In this document: positions 33,426 through 41,633 of the stretch, one piece after another | Layout of the letters: the number at the start of each line of letters is the position of its first letter | Numbering within the stretch: the stretch's first letter is position 1 | NCBI GenBank assembly: GCA_030688315.1 | Contig: JAUYIT010000030.1 | Location: 1 to 58,261, forward strand | Direction: 5' to 3' | DNA from: Candidatus Komeilibacteria bacterium | GTDB taxonomy: Bacteria > Patescibacteriota > Patescibacteriia > UBA1558 > UBA10009 | Length of the DNA stretch: 58,261 nt | Translations under genes and position numbers: made by a program | Notes under the pieces: model-generated | Told to the model about the DNA's origin: nothing | The model's input: the letters and a program-made list of their open reading frames with translations, nothing else | Databases searched by the model: none

Positions 33426-34424
33426 ATGAAAAAAATCAAAGTTGCTATTAACGGTTTTGGCCGGATTGGCCGGGCCGCGTTTAAAATCGCTTTAACCCAT
33501 CCGGAACTGGAAGTGGTGGCCGTTAATGATTTGTCCGATACCAAAAGTTTGGCGCATTTATTAAAATACGATTCCGTTTACGGACGTTTTGGTCAAAGCG
33601 TGGAAGCGGGCGAGGGCTTTATCAAAGTCGGCGCCGATAAAATCAAGTTTACCGCCATCAAGGAACCGGCCGAACTGCCTTGGAAAGAATTGGGCGTGGA
33701 CGTGGTTTTGGAATGCACCGGAATTTTTAGAACCAAGGAAAAAGTGATGTCGCACATCACTTCGGGCGCGCGTAAAGTCATTTTGTCCGCGCCGGCCAAG
33801 GATCATGACGTTAAAACTTTTGTGTTGGGCGTTAATGACCAAGATTATCAGGATGAACAAATCATCAACAACGCTTCCTGCACCACCAACTGCGTGGCAC
33901 CGGTTATGGCTGTGTTAATGGCGGAATTCGGCGTTAAAAAAGCCATGGTAACCACCGTTCATTCCTACACCGCCGATCAAAATCTGGTTGACGGTTCGCA
34001 TAAGGATTTGCGCAGAGCGCGCGGCGCGGCCATCAACATTGTGCCGACCTCCACCGGCGCCGCTACTGCCACCGCCGAAACCTTGCCGGAACTGCTGGGC
34101 AAATTTGATGGCCTATCATTGAGAGTGCCCACACCGGTCGTTTCCTTGTCCGACTTCACTATCTTACTGTCAAAATCGGTAACTAAAGAAGAAGTTAACG
34201 CGGCCTTTGTTGCATCCGCGGCCAGCGCCAGGTACAAAGGCATTTTAACGGTTACCCAAGATCCGATTGTTTCTTCCGATATTATTGCCGACCCCCATTC
34301 CTCCATCGTCGATTTGGATTTAACCCAGGTGGTGGATGGCGATCTGCTTAAAGTTATTTCTTGGTACGATAACGAATGGGGTTACGCCAACCGCTTGGTG
34401 GAAATGGTTAAGGTCGTGGCTTGA
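33426..34424 (+). CDS. gap: Type I glyceraldehyde-3-phosphate dehydrogenase
   Basis: INGFGRIGR, NASCTTNC, WYDNEWGY. Confidence 0.98.
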   Translation: MKKIKVAINGFGRIGRAAFKIALTHPELEVVAVNDLSDTKSLAHLLKYDSVYGRFGQSVEAGEGFIKVGADKIKFTAIKEPAELPWKELGVDVVLECTGIFRTKEKVMSHITSGARKVILSAPAKDHDVKTFVLGVNDQDYQDEQIINNASCTTNCVAPVMAVLMAEFGVKKAMVTTVHSYTADQNLVDGSHKDLRRARGAAINIVPTSTGAATATAETLPELLGKFDGLSLRVPTPVVSLSDFTILLSKSVTKEEVNAAFVASAASARYKGILTVTQDPIVSSDIIADPHSSIVDLDLTQVVDGDLLKVISWYDNEWGYANRLVEMVKVVA

Positions 34425-34506
34425 CATATTTTTCAGAAGGTTTAAAATAGAATAAATTAAAATAAGGGTCACAAAACAGGCGTTATCACCTGGCGTGACC
34501 CTTTTT
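34421..34506 (+). promoter_or_regulatory. Promoter plus AAGGGTCA...TGACCCTT hairpin element, copy 1
   Basis: TTGACA..TAAAAT then AAGGGTCAC-AAAA-CAGG-loop-CCTG-GC-GTGACCCTT-TTT. Confidence 0.6.
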
Positions 34507-34525
34507 GTTTAAATTTTTAACTAAT

Positions 34526-34554
34526 TTGACAACATATCATATATGATATATATT
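34526..34554 (+). promoter_or_regulatory. Promoter with perfect 16-bp palindromic operator
   Basis: TTGACA at 34526; ATATCATATATGATAT at 34534-34549; TATATT -10. Confidence 0.6.
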
Positions 34555-34585
34555 AATAATAATGTAATTAATAACCCTGAATCTT

Positions 34586-34879
34586 ATGAATAAAAAAATT
34601 GAAAAGGCCTTGGATTTTGAAGACGTCCTTAAAGAGGATTTAAAGGATCCAGAATTTAAAAAGTGGTTTGATTATTACGGCAAGCAGTTGGAAGTTTCGT
34701 TGGCAATTTTACGGTTGAGGAAAAAGAATCATATGACCCAGGCCCAGATGGCTAAAAAGCTCGGCACCAGCCAAAGCAACGTGGCCCGGCTGGAAAGAGG
34801 CCAGCAAAATTTTACCGTGGAATTTTTGGATAAAATCGCCACCGTCTTCAACAAGGAGCTTAAAATAAGTTTTCGATAA
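34586..34879 (+). CDS. XRE-family HTH protein (HigA-like antitoxin/regulator)
   Basis: LKDPEFKK..LRKKNHMTQAQMAKKLGTSQSNVARLERG. Confidence 0.88.
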   Translation: MNKKIEKALDFEDVLKEDLKDPEFKKWFDYYGKQLEVSLAILRLRKKNHMTQAQMAKKLGTSQSNVARLERGQQNFTVEFLDKIATVFNKELKISFR

Positions 34880-34937
34880 TTTTAGCCGTTTGACAATTAT
34901 TTCCGGAAAAGCTAAGATTAAATAAATCAGGAAAAAT

Positions 34938-35003
34938 ATGAAGATATCAAGGCAAAACAACGTTTTCCCCGTCTGCCCGCCTATTTTAGGCAGGGCCTTT
35001 TGA
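34938..35003 (+). CDS. Pro-containing leader peptide MKISRQNNVFPVCPPILGRAF
   Basis: Follows TTGACA-17-TAAGAT (34890-34918); Pro codons CCC, CCG, CCT; upstream of proC. Confidence 0.72.
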   Translation: MKISRQNNVFPVCPPILGRAF

Positions 35004-35065
35004 CATAGGATAAGTTACGATAAATTTATTCTAAAGCCCTGCCATTTAATTGCGCGGGGCTTTTT
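34975..35065 (+). promoter_or_regulatory. Ribosome-dependent attenuator upstream of proC
   Basis: 1:2 GCCCGCCTA/TAGGCAGGGC; antiterminator GGCAGGGC pairs GCCCTGCC; terminator AAAGCCCTGC/GCGGGGCTTT plus T run. Confidence 0.75.
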
Positions 35066-35168
35066 GTTTTGCCCTGAATATTTTTAAGATGAAAATTAAA
35101 AATTTCAGGGAAGGGCATAAGGCATGTTCCTTCAACAACGCACATTCAAAATAAGGAGGATGCGGATT

Positions 35169-35984
35169 ATGAAAAGTAATCTGCGCCTAGGTTTCATCGG
35201 ATCGGGCAAAATGGCGGAGGCCATAATCAGCGGCCTGTTAAGGAAGAAGCTGATTAAGCCCAAGAAGATCATCGCCTGCGGACCTCAAGAGTTGAGGGCA
35301 AAAGATCTTCAAAAGAGGTTTCGCGTCAAAGCAATGATAGATAATCTGTCGGCCGTGGAGAGCGAGATTGTTATTCTGTCGGTTAAACCGCAAAGTATGG
35401 CTAGGGTTTGCCGGCAGATAAAAGGGAAGATCGCAGTAGAATCACTCGTCATTTCCATCGCGGCAGGAATTCCTTTGGAGTTTCTGAAGGCAGAGCTGGA
35501 GCATGACCGAATTGTCAGAGCCATGCCTAACACGCCCGGGTCTATCGGCAAGGGTATCACGGGCTGGACCTGTACTCCCGAAGTATCTGCAGAGCAGAAA
35601 AGCCAAGTGGCTAATCTGCTTGAATCCTTAGGGGTTCAGATCTTCATGGATGATGAAAAAAAGCTGGACATGGTCACGGCCGTTTCCGGCACTGGACCGG
35701 CTTACGTTTTCCTGTTCATGGAAGCGTTTATAAATGCCGCTGTCGAAATCGGACTTTCCAGGGATGAAGCCAAACAGCTGGTTTTGGAAACCATAATCGG
35801 TTCCGCCGAGTACATTAAGGAGTTTCCTCAAAAGCATCTGGCTCATCTGCGCGATGAGGTCACTTCGCCGGCCGGCACAACCGCGGCCGCGCTGTATGAG
35901 CTGGAAAAAGCCGGTTTTAGAACCGCGATTGCCGACGCCATCAACGCGGCTTATCAGCGTTCCATCAAACTGGGAGGAAAATAG
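35169..35984 (+). CDS. proC: Pyrroline-5-carboxylate reductase
   Basis: GFIGSGKMA, VKPQ, SIAAG, RAMPNTP, SGTGPAY, VTSPAGTT; SD AGGAGG. Confidence 0.96.
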   Translation: MKSNLRLGFIGSGKMAEAIISGLLRKKLIKPKKIIACGPQELRAKDLQKRFRVKAMIDNLSAVESEIVILSVKPQSMARVCRQIKGKIAVESLVISIAAGIPLEFLKAELEHDRIVRAMPNTPGSIGKGITGWTCTPEVSAEQKSQVANLLESLGVQIFMDDEKKLDMVTAVSGTGPAYVFLFMEAFINAAVEIGLSRDEAKQLVLETIIGSAEYIKEFPQKHLAHLRDEVTSPAGTTAAALYELEKAGFRTAIADAINAAYQRSIKLGGK

Positions 35985-36093
35985 CCGCAATCGGGCGTTT
36001 ATCTTTAAGGTAAACGCCCTTTTTTATAATTAAAAAGCATTCTTGACACTGCTTTAGTCAAGATATATTATAATGATAATATTCAAGAAAATT

Positions 36094-36396
36094 ATGTCAT
36101 TAAAATTTAAAAGAACCAAAGAGGATTTTGATTGCGAAAATTGCCAGTCCCATGTCAAAGGCGACGGTTATACCAACCATTGTCCGTCTTGTTTATACAG
36201 CAAGCATGTGGATAACAATCCCGGCGATCGCGCGGCTGTTTGCGGCGGTTTAATGAAGCCCGTGGGTCTGGATTTGGAAAAAGAAGTTTATAAAATTCGC
36301 CATTGTTGCGTAAGATGCGGAGTAATTAGAAGAAACAAAGCCGTGCCCGGGGATGATTTTAATAAGCTGATTGAGTTAAGCAAGTTGAAGAAGTAG
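36094..36396 (+). CDS. RNHCP domain zinc-finger protein
   Basis: FDCENC..YTNHCPSCLYSKHVD..PGDRA..CGGLM..HCCVRCG. Confidence 0.88.
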   Translation: MSLKFKRTKEDFDCENCQSHVKGDGYTNHCPSCLYSKHVDNNPGDRAAVCGGLMKPVGLDLEKEVYKIRHCCVRCGVIRRNKAVPGDDFNKLIELSKLKK

Positions 36397-36494: not shown

Positions 36495-36815
36495 ATGATT
36501 AAAAAAGAGAAAGAGATTATAAATCAAAATTTAATTAATGATTTTGTTGCCCGGTTGACGCGGGAGCGCGGACTGGATAATCTGGAAGCCGAAGTCATAT
36601 CCCAGATAAAAACAGATTTGGCGGATAGGGTTTCTAATAAGATAAACGCTGCGATTATTGAAAAAATGCCCATAGACAAATTAACTGATTTTGAAAGTTT
36701 ACTGGATACGGGTACGAGCAGTGAAGTCCAGGATTTTTGCGCCACTCATGTTCCGAATTTAAACAGCGTGGTCGCCGCGGCCTTGGCTGATTTTGCCGAC
36801 AGTTACTTAAAATAA
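36495..36815 (+). CDS. Small acidic helical protein (DUF5663-like)
   Basis: Helical acidic pattern recalled from CPR DUF5663-like proteins; 6 nt upstream of the giant gene. Confidence 0.6.
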   Translation: MIKKEKEIINQNLINDFVARLTRERGLDNLEAEVISQIKTDLADRVSNKINAAIIEKMPIDKLTDFESLLDTGTSSEVQDFCATHVPNLNSVVAAALADFADSYLK

Positions 36816-36821
36816 TAAAGT

Positions 36822-39800
36822 ATGCTTGAAAACCGGCAGTTAAGCCCCGAGAATAAAAATCCAGACAGATTGAAGGCGGTTATGGTTGACGTGTCGTCTC
36901 TGGCCGCCGACGCGGCTAGGGATGTGGCCATGGAAAATTTATCCAAAGACCGTCTGGAAGCCAATGGTTTTGGGGGTTTTCTCAAAAAATTGTGGAAACA
37001 TAATCTTTTTGCCGAATATTACCAGCAAAAAGAAATTATAAAAGCCAAAGAAAGCATTATTTCTTCCGGTAATGTTTTTGTTGATGAAACCGACGATAAG
37101 CAGTATCACGCGGCAGCCATGTCCGCTATTATTGAAAGATTCAGTTCTGACTATCATGATGCTTTGCACTTGGAAACAGGCGAAACAAAAGAAAATTTCG
37201 GCGCTTCGCCGGAAGAAGATCGGATAAAACGGCAATTAGTTGATTTGCTAAAAGAGTACGCGGAAAAAGATTTAAGCGATAAAAATATTGCTGATACTTT
37301 TGAAGCGGAAAAAAGCAGGATTTTTTCCCAAGTGCAGGATAAAAAAGCTAATATATTGTCCGGCGGCCACATGTACGCGGATAATCTTTTTGAAATCGCC
37401 AAGCAGATTCAACAGGCGATCATAGAAGGGCAGAGTATGGAAGATTTGACGGCTGATCTGGAATTTACCATCGGCCGGGCCAAAGCGGGCGTGAGGACCG
37501 AAGCGCAATACAACACGCTGGAAAGAATTTTTAATAAAATTTCAGAAACCAAGCCGGGCAAATATTTGGTCAGCAACGGCGTTTTGGCGTCGGGCTTGGC
37601 CCTGGCTTATTGTTTGTCATCCAAATTATCGCAATCGTTTGTGCGCAGCAAAGCGGCGCAATGGTCCACTTTTGGCGCCACTACTTTGCTGGCTGGGGGC
37701 TTATCCGGATTAAAGGAAGCAAAAAAGCTTGAAGAAGAGCGCGGTCAGTATTTCCGCCAAATGGCGAAGTCAAAAAGTTTTCGCGAGCAAAATCAAAATA
37801 ACGCCAGCGAGTATGAGGCCTATCGTTATCAGGCGGTTGATGCCGGCGCTTTAGCCGTAGCGATTGGCGGCGCGATGTACGAGCCTGGTCAGCCCGATGA
37901 AAAATTAAAAATGAAAGATCTTGACGCGGGCGGCTTGGAAGCTGCTTTGTCCGGTTTGGCGGAGTTGGAGGCGAGGGTTACGATGTCTGATAGGCAAAAA
38001 ATAGATTTAATCAGTTTTAGTGATGCTAAGTTGATTGAGCAGGAACGCTGGCAGTTGGATATATTGCGCGCCAAAGCCAAGATTGATTTAAAAAAATATT
38101 TTGCTCAAGCCGATAAAAAAAATATTTTACGGCAGGTTTGCGGTGATAGGGATTTGACGGAATTTTTAAATTCGCTCACGGAAGCCAAAATTTTTGGTCT
38201 GTTAAAAGGCACGGCTGGGGATGAAAACGGAATTGAGTTTAAAAACCGCTTGTTTAACAAAATGAAAAATAAAAAGGTGGCACAGGCGGTAATTAAGGGG
38301 GTACTAACCGCTCTTACAGTGGGCACGGCTGTGCAGGAAGGCATAGCATTGGCCACCGATCAGACCGGTTTTATTGAACGTATGATTAATGAGCATAAAG
38401 GTGATTCCGGTAAATACGCCACGGCATTGGAATCCTTGCGCCGTTGGATTAATCCCGAGCCCGATCAAATAATTACCACCGAACGGATTATAACCGAGAT
38501 AGTTGAACATGTTCCGTCCGAAGAATTAACCCAAGCGGCGGCTGAAAGCGCTTTGCCGCAAGCGGAGCCGCCAGATTTTAAAGACATTCATCGCGACCTG
38601 TGGTATGACAACGAAACCATTAAAGCTGATTTTAATGAATTAAAATTGCGCGGCGCGGGTATTAATCAGGCGATGGTTGACCAACATGGCAACTTTATTT
38701 TTTCGGTCAAGGAAATGGCCACAGACGGTTCCTTTGCAGGCGGTGGTTCAGCTGACGTTCCTAAGGCGCTGACCGAAGGAAAAATCAAGCTCTTGCTTTC
38801 TTTGAGCAAAGACACGCAGAACCAGGTTTTAGAGGTACCGATTGGCCCCGATGGTTTAGCTGTCATTACTAAAGACAGCCAAGCGGCCAGGATTTTATTT
38901 GATGAACAGGGTAATTTTTTGGGCCAGTATGCCGAAGTGGTTGAGGAGGGCCTGGTGGATGAAAACAATGTCCAGCACGTTAACGTTATCGCCACTATGG
39001 TCGGCAAGGGCGTGGAACCGATTGAAATTTTACCTGCCACGGCCGAACAGGTCGTTCCGGCACCAGAGCCGATTACGGAAACTAAAGAAAGATTGGTAAC
39101 CGAACAAACAATTATTCCCGGCCAAAAGTACCAACATGGTTTTCCGCCTCCGGCCATCGGTTTTTGGCAACGCTTAAAAACTTCCGTCAATTCCAAAGTA
39201 AAAAACAATTTAGAGGATCAAATTAAACCAGCAACAACCATGGAAAAAACGCCAAACCAACCAGTCCAAAATCCTGAAAAGCAAGAAAATATAAAAGTTG
39301 TTGAAGAGAAAACAATTGAAGAGAAGCCGAAGGAGGAGCAAAGAGATAATCCTGTATCCGCGCCTGCCGTTGTTGCCGCGCCGGTTATTGTGGCGGGAGC
39401 CATTGCTTTAAAATCAGCGGAACAAAAACAGGAAACTTCTGTTGAGAAAAAAAATATTGCGCCAACGGAAACGCCTGTTGTTAATGCAATGCAAGAGACA
39501 GGATCGACCAACAAAGAACAGTCAAAAGCGGAGCCCGCTAAACAGCCGGAGCCAGCCAAAAAAGAGCAGTCAGATTTGGCTCCGATGCCAGCTCAACAAC
39601 AGCCAGCTTTACCTGCCAGTCCGGAACCAACGCCTGCTCCGGCGGATAAAAAAGCCAAAGCGGCACGCGTAAAAAGAGAGCCAGCGGGCTTAAAGACGGA
39701 ACCTCAAAAAACAGAACCTCCTTTGCCGGTTGAATCAAAAACTCTAGAGCCGGAAAATATTGTTGTTGAATCGGAACCAGCCGCGCCCCAGCCGTTACAG

Positions 39801-41633
39801 CAAGCGCCTGCCTCGGCTCCTTTGCCGTCGCAACAAACTACGCCCGTCAAGGTGTCAACTGCTGAAATTAAAACTATGCCAGCTAAGGAACAAATAACTC
39901 AAGAAGGGAAGATTAAAACTGATGAAGTTATTAAGGAAGCTTTAGAAGGTGAGGCAAGTAAAACAATGTGGGATAAAGCCAATAAAGACAAGAGACAGAT
40001 AGTAAAAAATATCCTGGGTAAATTATTTTCTGATCCGGAATCAGCCCAAATGGCTAACAGATTAAATCTTAGTTTTGAAAAAGAACCAGGGGGTTTGATG
40101 TATTATTTTGAACATAATTTGTTGACCGTTGATTTAACTGAGATATCAGAAGTAACTTTAGAAGGTTTTAAAAAAAATATTAAACGTGGTCTATTTTTGT
40201 ATTTAAATAATTTATCAGATAGCACCCTTTCCTCTGATGATGTTCAAGAGTTTCGGCATTTTACTTTCAAGAGTTTCGGCAACTATACGGTGGACCAACT
40301 TTACAATGCAATTTACAAGGTAAAGGCGGTTTTTGGTTTTTTTATTAAAATAAACAATAAAACTTCTAACCAAAATAAGGAACTGGAGCATATCGTTGAA
40401 GCCGCCACTGGTTTTGCCGGCAAGTACCAGTTGTCCTTTTTTTGGGGGGAAGAAAATAAGCTGGACGCGGAGCATTTTAAGGTTACTTTGGATATCAATA
40501 ACGATATTAACCAACTAACCGAGTTTTTACTGTCTTTAGCCGATGTTTATCAGACAGAATTGAAAAAATTGGATGAATTAGCCCAGCAAAACAGATATCA
40601 AGAACGTGATTACAAGGAGGTGGTCCGTGAAAGCCAGGTGGAAATGGCTGGGGATGTAGACGGACGTTTGCAACGGCTGTTTAATGAACTAAAAGATTCG
40701 GATTTAGTCAAAGTTGAAGATGAAAATCTTATCTGGCAGGGAGGCAAAGGCCGGTTGTTGTTTGCTGGCGATATTTGCGGTGACCGCGATATGGACGGGT
40801 TTGAAATCTTGTCTAAATTGGCATATTTAAAACAGCAGGCCAAAAAAGAGGGTGGCACGGTGGACTGGCTGGCTGGCAACCACGAACAATTTTTGTTCAA
40901 TTATTTTTTCTTTGGCCGCACCGCTAACACCGATCCGGAAGTAACTAATAGCCCTTATGTCGGCATTTTGGAACCCGGCTTATTTTCCGCCGATAAAAAT
41001 TTTAAGCGCGATTTGGCCGAATTTAAAAAGCAATGGTTTGATGATGAAAGCGCGGCTGTTAATTTTGCGATTGGTAAAAAAATTATCGGCCGTTTTAGCG
41101 CAAGCCGACAGGAAATTTTAGCCAATATGCGCGCTAATTCGGAAGGCCGGCAGGTGCTGAAAAATCTGTGCCAGTATAAACTACTGGTTAAAAAAGATGA
41201 CACCCTGTTTTTGCACACGCCTATTACCCATAAAATAGCCATCATTTTAGCCAAAGCCAATGATTTGGATGTCAAAATAGACGAGATAAATGGCGTGTTC
41301 CGGACCGGCTTGTGGCGGTTTTTAATTGAAGGCAAAGAATTTAGCAGGGATGACAATCAGGAGTTTTTCTTTTACTACGATACTTTTTTGGAAACCGAAA
41401 ACCGCCATAATTTTACCGATCAGGTTTTGGAAACCCGTTTGCGCCAATTAGGCGTTAACGCCATCGCTCACGGGCATAATTATGAACTTAAATCGTCTAC
41501 AACTCGTCAATTACCGATAATTTCCGCTGATAATAATAAAGGCCAGCTGGGAATAAAAATTAAAACTGACGGGAATATAGAAGATTATGAACACAAAGGA
41601 GACAAAAGAATTGTCCGGCCAATTAAAAAATAA
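36822..41633 (+). CDS. 1603-aa multidomain protein: helical N-terminus with hydrophobic segments, Pro/Gln/Glu linker, C-terminal calcineurin-like metallophosphoesterase
   Basis: FAGDICGDRD, LAGNHEQ, LFLH and IAHGHN motifs in the last ~300 aa. Confidence 0.75.
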   Translation: MLENRQLSPENKNPDRLKAVMVDVSSLAADAARDVAMENLSKDRLEANGFGGFLKKLWKHNLFAEYYQQKEIIKAKESIISSGNVFVDETDDKQYHAAAMSAIIERFSSDYHDALHLETGETKENFGASPEEDRIKRQLVDLLKEYAEKDLSDKNIADTFEAEKSRIFSQVQDKKANILSGGHMYADNLFEIAKQIQQAIIEGQSMEDLTADLEFTIGRAKAGVRTEAQYNTLERIFNKISETKPGKYLVSNGVLASGLALAYCLSSKLSQSFVRSKAAQWSTFGATTLLAGGLSGLKEAKKLEEERGQYFRQMAKSKSFREQNQNNASEYEAYRYQAVDAGALAVAIGGAMYEPGQPDEKLKMKDLDAGGLEAALSGLAELEARVTMSDRQKIDLISFSDAKLIEQERWQLDILRAKAKIDLKKYFAQADKKNILRQVCGDRDLTEFLNSLTEAKIFGLLKGTAGDENGIEFKNRLFNKMKNKKVAQAVIKGVLTALTVGTAVQEGIALATDQTGFIERMINEHKGDSGKYATALESLRRWINPEPDQIITTERIITEIVEHVPSEELTQAAAESALPQAEPPDFKDIHRDLWYDNETIKADFNELKLRGAGINQAMVDQHGNFIFSVKEMATDGSFAGGGSADVPKALTEGKIKLLLSLSKDTQNQVLEVPIGPDGLAVITKDSQAARILFDEQGNFLGQYAEVVEEGLVDENNVQHVNVIATMVGKGVEPIEILPATAEQVVPAPEPITETKERLVTEQTIIPGQKYQHGFPPPAIGFWQRLKTSVNSKVKNNLEDQIKPATTMEKTPNQPVQNPEKQENIKVVEEKTIEEKPKEEQRDNPVSAPAVVAAPVIVAGAIALKSAEQKQETSVEKKNIAPTETPVVNAMQETGSTNKEQSKAEPAKQPEPAKKEQSDLAPMPAQQQPALPASPEPTPAPADKKAKAARVKREPAGLKTEPQKTEPPLPVESKTLEPENIVVESEPAAPQPLQQAPASAPLPSQQTTPVKVSTAEIKTMPAKEQITQEGKIKTDEVIKEALEGEASKTMWDKANKDKRQIVKNILGKLFSDPESAQMANRLNLSFEKEPGGLMYYFEHNLLTVDLTEISEVTLEGFKKNIKRGLFLYLNNLSDSTLSSDDVQEFRHFTFKSFGNYTVDQLYNAIYKVKAVFGFFIKINNKTSNQNKELEHIVEAATGFAGKYQLSFFWGEENKLDAEHFKVTLDINNDINQLTEFLLSLADVYQTELKKLDELAQQNRYQERDYKEVVRESQVEMAGDVDGRLQRLFNELKDSDLVKVEDENLIWQGGKGRLLFAGDICGDRDMDGFEILSKLAYLKQQAKKEGGTVDWLAGNHEQFLFNYFFFGRTANTDPEVTNSPYVGILEPGLFSADKNFKRDLAEFKKQWFDDESAAVNFAIGKKIIGRFSASRQEILANMRANSEGRQVLKNLCQYKLLVKKDDTLFLHTPITHKIAIILAKANDLDVKIDEINGVFRTGLWRFLIEGKEFSRDDNQEFFFYYDTFLETENRHNFTDQVLETRLRQLGVNAIAHGHNYELKSSTTRQLPIISADNNKGQLGIKIKTDGNIEDYEHKGDKRIVRPIKK

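Follow-up and report, generated by a model that had tools for sequence, protein, structure and literature searches.

A putative proline-sensing leader-peptide attenuator in front of a stand-alone proC gene in Candidatus Komeilibacteria and related genomes

In the stretch of Candidatus Komeilibacteria DNA analysed here (contig JAUYIT010000030.1 of GenBank assembly GCA_030688315.1, positions 1 to 58,261 of the forward strand; this whole stretch of 58,261 nucleotides (nt) is referred to as the window), the gene proC, encoding pyrroline-5-carboxylate reductase, is preceded by a promoter, a very short open reading frame (ORF) with clustered proline codons and an intrinsic terminator. The question arises whether this arrangement regulates proC and, if so, which signal it reads, in a phylum of tiny genomes whose gene regulation is almost unstudied. 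As judged from sequence comparison and folding calculations, the leader is probably a ribosome-mediated leader-peptide transcription attenuator, which senses charged tRNA-Pro and controls proC. The parts of the element, their complementarity and their recurrence in relatives are present in the DNA; translation of the short ORF, stalling of the ribosome at the Pro codons and the regulatory response are what the model predicts.

All parts of the leader are located on the plus strand. A sigma-70-like promoter (TTGACA-17-TAAGAT, 34890-34918) with 10 of 12 consensus matches, which would drive the leader transcript, begins right after the stop codon of the upstream neighbour, a gene for an XRE-type helix-turn-helix (HTH) protein (34586-34879, Pfam HTH_3). 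It is followed by a weak Shine-Dalgarno-like AGGA (34929-34932, by reading of the sequence) 5 nt 5′ of the leader ATG, and by the leader ORF of 21 codons plus TGA at 34938-35003 in the ORF listing, with the peptide MKISRQNNVFPVCPPILGRAF. Three Pro codons are found in frame within six codons of this ORF, CCC at 34968-34970, CCG at 34977-34979 and CCT at 34980-34982. The transcript can form three alternative stems. The first one, the 1:2 hairpin or anti-antiterminator (34975-34996), pairs segment 1 (34975-34983) with segment 2 (34987-34996) and has an energy of -14.7 kcal/mol when 34971-35005 is folded separately. The 2:3 antiterminator (34989-35044) pairs 34989-34999 with the 5′ arm of the terminator at 35034-35044 and encloses an AU-rich middle hairpin (35007-35032, -7.8 kcal/mol), which lies between segments 2 and 3; this conformation reaches -23.7 kcal/mol when 34986-35046 is folded separately. 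The intrinsic terminator (35034-35070) consists of the 3:4 stem-loop at 35034-35062 (-17.7 kcal/mol), followed by TTTTTGTTTT, with the U-tract at 35061-35070. It was missed by a simple terminator scan, by whose rule the loop has 9 nt and the stem is bulged, and it was detected by a looser scan.

The promoter, the leader of 21 amino acids and the three alternative stems of the original prediction were thus all confirmed in the sequence, and so was its statement that the Pro codons lie at or just before segment 1, as the last two of them (CCG CCT) are contained in 34975-34983 and the first one is found at 34968-34970. Every structural feature of a trp/his-type attenuator that could be tested was present, namely a short ORF at the 5′ end, a cluster of Pro codons, a terminator, an antiterminator and an anti-antiterminator. 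The whole leader (34922-35075) folds at -52 kcal/mol with a z-score of -5.04, and none of 200 shuffled sequences was as stable. The minimum-energy fold contains the 1:2 hairpin, the middle hairpin, the terminator and a closing helix, in which an A-rich stretch GGCAAAACAA (34951-34960, codons R-Q-N-N) is paired with 35064-35073, i.e. the U-tract plus GCC. This helix closes a four-way junction; it could be incidental or could confer stability on the leader RNA after termination. A second copy of the 201-base leader was not detected in the genome, where the next best match was 17 bases long.

According to the proposed mechanism, transcription would start about 12 nt 5′ of the leader ORF, and a ribosome would load at once. 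With plentiful Pro-tRNA(Pro) the ribosome would reach the stop codon at 35001 and cover segment 2 (34987-34999), the terminator (35034-35062 plus the U-tract) would form, and the transcript would end near 35065-35070. With scarce Pro-tRNA(Pro) the ribosome would stall with a Pro codon (34968-34982) in its A site, sitting on segment 1 and leaving segment 2 free; 34989-34999 would then pair with 35034-35044, no terminator would be formed, and RNA polymerase would continue into proC. If no ribosome is present, the 1:2 and 3:4 stems would both form and termination would be expected.

The original prediction was to be given up if relatives had no such leader, and the comparison gave the opposite result. 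At 75 proC places, in 74 genomes of this phylum, the upstream DNA was inspected; most of these genes follow proB or proA in an operon. The occurrence of proC itself is patchy, as the gene was present in 7 of 86 genomes of the order, in 44 of 401 genomes of the class sample and in 26 of 401 genomes of the phylum sample, and it is absent from G001, a genome of the same genus. Nine genomes, which belong to six families within the same class, have a stand-alone proC that is directly preceded by a short Pro-cluster ORF plus terminator: G000, which is the genome of the window, G005, G040, G043, G301, G211, G220, G116 and G162. A tenth, candidate leader (MKKLFSNNQAPHPREIDFSAR) is located upstream of proB-proC in G050, and all ten leaders are included in the counts given here. 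The leader peptides have a length of 8 to 28 amino acids and dissimilar sequences: MKLAFCLISSSPIPAPRNLRLGHI in G040, MKMSVYTIFFSPVPTPDILRSGYIRCSQ in G043, MNMNYQNTITSPVPAPTLLRQGHFSLFM in G211, MNNIFPPI in G005, MKQNNINFYTLPPSKGIVFA in G301, MRQILPPKLTVTQST in G220, MNTRTHNQNPQPTNVSRWR in G116 and MQKQSYRYQKTAPVPPADPSLTMSVVLA in G162. In G220 (L104), two tandem Pro leaders, each with its own terminator, are located 303 to 60 nt 5′ of proC, the second ORF containing K-N-N-F-L-T-R-P-P-K. Terminators are present in all ten leaders, and in G040 and G043 the upstream neighbour is divergently transcribed, so that the terminator there is not that of an upstream gene. In eight leaders (not in G040 and G162) a sigma-70-like promoter was found, the -10 box of which ends 6-19 nt 5′ of the leader ATG; most leader ORFs would therefore be leaderless or nearly so, and a Shine-Dalgarno sequence is mostly absent from them. 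Apart from the Pro codons and the terminator, sequence and fold of the leader vary between genomes, and an alignment with MAFFT was confined to four leaders and misaligned the ATG of the window. No additional leaders were found in the orders of G211, G220 and G301, which are represented by 3, 7 and 9 genomes, respectively.

The regions 5′ of related proC genes were compared for conserved Pro codons, as had been suggested. Three Pro codons are in frame in the window, G040, G043 and G211, and their third bases vary (CCC/CCA, CCG/CCA, CCT/CCG/CCA); a retained CC with a variable third base is what selection on decoding predicts. In G040, G043 and G211 the last Pro codon or codons are also part of the 5′ strand of the first hairpin according to our reading of the folds. 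When an ATG ORF with P-x(0-2)-P within 165 bases around the terminator start was used as the criterion, a Pro cluster was present in 10 of 10 leaders, compared with an expectation of 1.18 after dinucleotide shuffling. Of the 19 remaining amino acids, Asn was the sole one with a conspicuous excess (6 leaders vs 0.73 expected). In total, Pro makes up 26 of 212 leader residues by our own count from the peptides vs 4.0% in the long ORFs of G000. The Asn codons cluster just 5′ of the Pro cluster in six leaders (the window at 34953-34961, G005, G301, G211, G116 and G050), and a motif N-N-[VI]-F before the prolines is common to the window, G005, G301 and the second G220 unit; its sharing could be due to shared ancestry, to a constraint on the RNA or to an effect of the nascent peptide.

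The geometry of the leaders was analysed with a ribosome model in which protection extends at most 12 nt beyond the first base of the codon in the A site and the transcript is folded up to the loop of the terminator. In 9 of 10 leaders, a ribosome whose A site holds the first Pro codon leaves the 5′ arm of the terminator paired with a segment in the 3′ portion of the ORF, and in the window 10 of 11 arm bases are paired with 34989-34999. When the stop codon has entered the A site, the antiterminator segment is masked, and in 7 of 10 leaders only 0-1 arm bases are still paired upstream. The second G220 unit has a geometry like theirs, both at the stall and at the stop. In the window the 2:3 duplex has an energy of -19.3 kcal/mol vs -10.9 ± 2.5 kcal/mol in 1000 dinucleotide shuffles (p = 0.007), and across the ten leaders Fisher's combined p for the duplex test was 0.005. 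The trp/his-type geometry that had been read from the window alone is thus a recurrent one, and the idea of a classical Pro attenuator on a proline gene is favoured by both the comparison and the computation.

Several observations weigh against this interpretation. Taken individually, the antiterminator duplex is more stable than the shuffles in only three leaders (p = 0.007, 0.010 and 0.029); the other seven are not significant, and G301, with p = 1.0, has no clear antiterminator. For the ribosome-free partial transcript before synthesis of the 3′ arm, the minimum-energy fold is the antiterminator in 6 of 10 leaders, so that a default ‘off’ state must rest on the order of folding, with 1:2 forming first. 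A crude kinetic proxy, which freezes early helices, was noisy: the stall positions that it marked as permissive fell on or at the Pro cluster in 6 of 10 leaders, there were none in G040 and G162, the range was broad in G050, and in G301 the positions were misplaced. Each leader has just 2-4 Pro codons, and because the Shine-Dalgarno sequence is weak or absent, translation of the leader ORF is an assumption. Among the sequencing runs listed, no RNA run covers the stretch, which is evidence in neither direction. In a metagenome pattern scan based on segment 2 and the terminator, ProC was found nearby at 0 of 80 loci from 119 stretches; the matches were rejected as leaders and regarded as chance terminators. 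Moreover, the ten leaders were initially chosen by eye, and for this reason two less biased measures were also used. In a scan for terminators that was blind to Pro, terminators 40-300 nt 5′ of proC were detected at 10 loci, 8 of which have the leader; at the two others the scan had picked up an ORF antisense to a tRNA gene and the own terminator of an upstream gene, and the leader of G211 was not detected. As a genome-wide background, 89 of 857 terminator-like sites in G000 (10.4%) satisfy the Pro-cluster criterion. The related genomes are not independent of each other, and the enrichment numbers are therefore somewhat overstated.

Alternatively, the leader might be a chance combination, in which the hairpin is just the terminator of the HTH gene or of a small-protein gene and proC is transcribed from an unregulated promoter of its own. 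Although the simple terminator scan detected no terminator between the HTH gene and the leader, and about 10% of the terminator-like sites in G000 have a Pro-cluster ATG ORF nearby by chance, the promoter scan detected no promoter-like site between 35070 and 35169, and the arrangement recurs in eight other genomes with different or divergent upstream neighbours; at a background of 10.4%, at least 8 of 10 would be expected with a chance of about 5e-7 (our own arithmetic, uncorrected for kinship). Coincidence is hence regarded as most improbable. Only slightly more credit is given to the idea that the short ORF is incidental and that a riboswitch, a protein-binding attenuator or an independent small RNA with a terminator is located before proC, and we consider it very unlikely. 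The strong structure of the leader (z = -5.04), the long-range helix closing a four-way junction, the extra hairpins at 35073-35133 and the weak or absent Shine-Dalgarno sequences of the leader ORFs would fit such an RNA. However, no Rfam family was matched at threshold, the best match, PyrG_leader, covering mostly the terminator; what the leader contains besides the Pro codons and the terminator varies from genome to genome in both sequence and fold; and the conservation of an in-frame Pro cluster with synonymous changes of the third base points to selection on decoding and not on an aptamer.

A closer competitor, although still an unlikely one, keeps the same architecture and exchanges the signal, so that elongation factor P (EF-P) or general translation capacity, and not the proline supply, would be read through the Pro or Pro-Pro codons. 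PP motifs occur in 5 of 10 leaders, namely in the window (C-P-P), G005, G301, G220 (both units) and G162, and EF-P is encoded in G000. PP is absent, however, from the S-P-[VI]-P-x-P type (G040, G043, G211), from G116 and from the proB-linked candidate of G050, which have P-x-P spacing, and P-x-P is a weaker EF-P-dependent context than PP. Once the last Pro codon occupies the A site, part of segment 2 of the window is already covered and just 6 of 11 arm bases stay paired. The Salmonella mgt leaders with Pro codons respond to conditions that slow down Pro decoding (PMC3641672, in the accessible part of that source), which would be in line with a signal of this kind, but the gene regulated here makes proline, which fits proline sensing. 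A more far-reaching and equally doubtful variant, which can be likened to TnaC with its sensing of free tryptophan inside the ribosome, is that the N-N-[VI]-F...P-P peptide of the window, G005, G301 and the second G220 unit acts as an arrest peptide sensing free proline or the EF-P state on a near-leaderless mRNA, by which bacteria devoid of proA and proB would switch on an orphan proC that salvages P5C (pyrroline-5-carboxylate) or ornithine of a host. If this were true, the Pro leader would be more than a string of hungry codons.

An attenuator sensing charged tRNA-Pro, as preferred here, would have consequences for the role of proC. The gene product of 271 amino acids (35169-35984, plus strand; Pfam and NCBIfam) matches Pfam P5CR_dimer (4.8e-38) and F420_oxidored (4e-20) and scores 265.6 bits against NCBIfam TIGR00112, with a curated cut-off of 196.75. 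The true start is most likely the ATG at 35169, from which residue the homologues align and which is located 9 nt after the ribosome-binding site AAGGAGG read at 35153-35159 on the plus strand; the ATG at 35124 is merely where the longest ORF begins. Between the terminator and the ribosome-binding site the plus strand carries two further hairpins (35073-35109 and 35110-35133; together -20.1 kcal/mol for 35066-35135). At the corresponding position, G040 and G043 have a hairpin and a second terminator-like stem with a T-run. The genome G000 was obtained from a groundwater sample and has a size of 1.02 Mb at a completeness of 93.55%, which is in keeping with a CPR bacterium, as assumed in the original prediction. 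No match to proA, proB, proline dehydrogenase (Pro_dh) or arginase was found in it at this completeness, and proC is consequently an orphan. It encodes three tRNA-Pro genes and an aminotransferase of the ArgD/OAT family (L289, 1333-2610), which scores 378 bits, under all subfamily cut-offs, and which could be a source of glutamate semialdehyde from ornithine. That an orphan proC is kept under apparently proline-specific control argues for an actual role of the enzyme in making proline, with P5C or ornithine coming from another source. A crude scan of G000 for other 5′ terminators after short ORFs gave 59 candidates, among which there was no second convincing amino-acid leader.

On its 3′ side, proC is followed by a terminator at 35993-36019 on the plus strand, a 12-pair stem and then TTTTTT. 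Further downstream, an RNHCP-domain zinc-ribbon protein and a DUF5663 protein (36073-36396 and 36495-36815) and then an ORF of 1603 amino acids (36822-41633) are encoded.

The distribution of the leader was also followed through the ProC protein. A profile search with a ProC alignment yielded, among the matches listed, mostly sequences of Chloroflexi, Acidobacteria and Proteobacteria; at 80 loci among these matches no Pro leader was detected by script, and the 17 closest outside loci among them, which were read by eye, have no leader either. Cyanobacterial ‘Pro ORFs’ 5′ of proC were rejected, as they are the C-termini of an upstream gene of about 200 amino acids. In a tree of 73 ProC proteins calculated with a quick IQ-TREE run, all nine leader-linked ProCs were grouped with ProCs of the Chloroflexi and Acidobacteria type (89% support in the Shimodaira-Hasegawa-like approximate likelihood ratio test, SH-aLRT), the closeness of these outside sequences being given by construction because they had been picked as best hits. 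Five of the nine leader-linked ProCs form one clade with 99% support, and the proB-linked ProCs of the phylum are placed elsewhere. In G437 (L120) and G455 (L123), a purine-rich/pyrimidine-rich hairpin with a T-run is located about 70 nt 5′ of a stand-alone proC that has no Pro leader; it could be an attenuator of another kind or simply an upstream terminator.

Searches with the Rfam models were performed with E-values up to 10. For the window at 34400-36300 only sub-threshold noise was obtained, and none of 15 related loci gave a match at the gathering threshold. The best match was PyrG_leader (RF02371) with 28.1 bits, compared with a gathering threshold of 65, and E = 0.4, its paired columns being those of the terminator stem. 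The Trp, His, Leu, Thr and Phe leader models did not match the leader at 34938-35070; the sole Thr_leader match (15.7 bits) is located at 35992-36097 on the minus strand. It had been claimed that the leader is not a T-box, and this is borne out by the search of 34400-36300, which gave no covariance-model match to the T-box family (RF00230), and by the lack of a specifier loop and a T-box sequence in the window. A T-box-like leader directly 5′ of proC was found in a genome of another class (G585, L132, 2328-2495, minus strand; 41.8 bits, E = 7e-8, gathering threshold 93), carrying a conserved GGUGGUACC box and a terminator, so that proC is also under the control of tRNA charging in another part of the phylum.

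Classical attenuation is textbook knowledge for Trp, His, Leu, Thr, Ile/Val and Phe. With the trpL, hisL, leuL, thrL, pheL and ilv leaders of Proteobacteria, and with examples from Actinobacteria and Firmicutes, the window leader shares a short ORF with clustered codons of the end product; as in leaders of the trpL/hisL type, there are 1:2, 2:3 and 3:4 alternatives and a terminator before a biosynthetic gene, the regulatory codons are located in or just before segment 1, and a ribosome at the stop codon would cover segment 2. In Bacillus, the proline genes proBA and proI have T-box leaders. The window leader would share with these the sensing of tRNA-Pro charging and the control of a terminator before proline biosynthesis genes; unlike in T-boxes, its sensing would go through the ribosome. 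The polycysteine short ORFs of mycobacteria are leaderless attenuators upstream of genes for that amino acid. As in the window leader, the short ORF is leaderless or almost so, and codons for a single amino acid are clustered in it; the amino acid, the phylum and the downstream mechanism are different. In Salmonella mgtL (mgtA) and mgtP (mgtCBR), Pro codons in a short ORF likewise decide on RNA structure and downstream transcription (PMC3641672, as far as that source was available); these long, multi-signal leaders belong to Mg2+ transporter and virulence genes, and no similarity to them in sequence or in the Rfam search was found for the leader described here.

A leader-peptide attenuator of proline biosynthesis genes, or one of any specificity in this phylum, was not found in full-text searches, the coverage of which leaves out subscription journals. 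A term search of Naville and Gautheret 2010 (PMC2965389) gave no occurrence of ‘proline’, and the ten word starts ‘proC’ seen there belong to ‘procedure’ and ‘process’; likewise, the part of a survey of Actinobacteria (PMC1262725) that was available has 0 occurrences of proline. The Pro leader unit is short, self-contained and near-leaderless, and it could easily be tested in a reporter. In comparison with the leaders of the trpL/hisL type, the element of the window thus has proline codons, proC as its target, a host from a tiny-genome phylum and a near-leaderless ORF, and this combination of specificity, target, lineage and ORF type appears, within the literature searched, to be new for classical attenuation.

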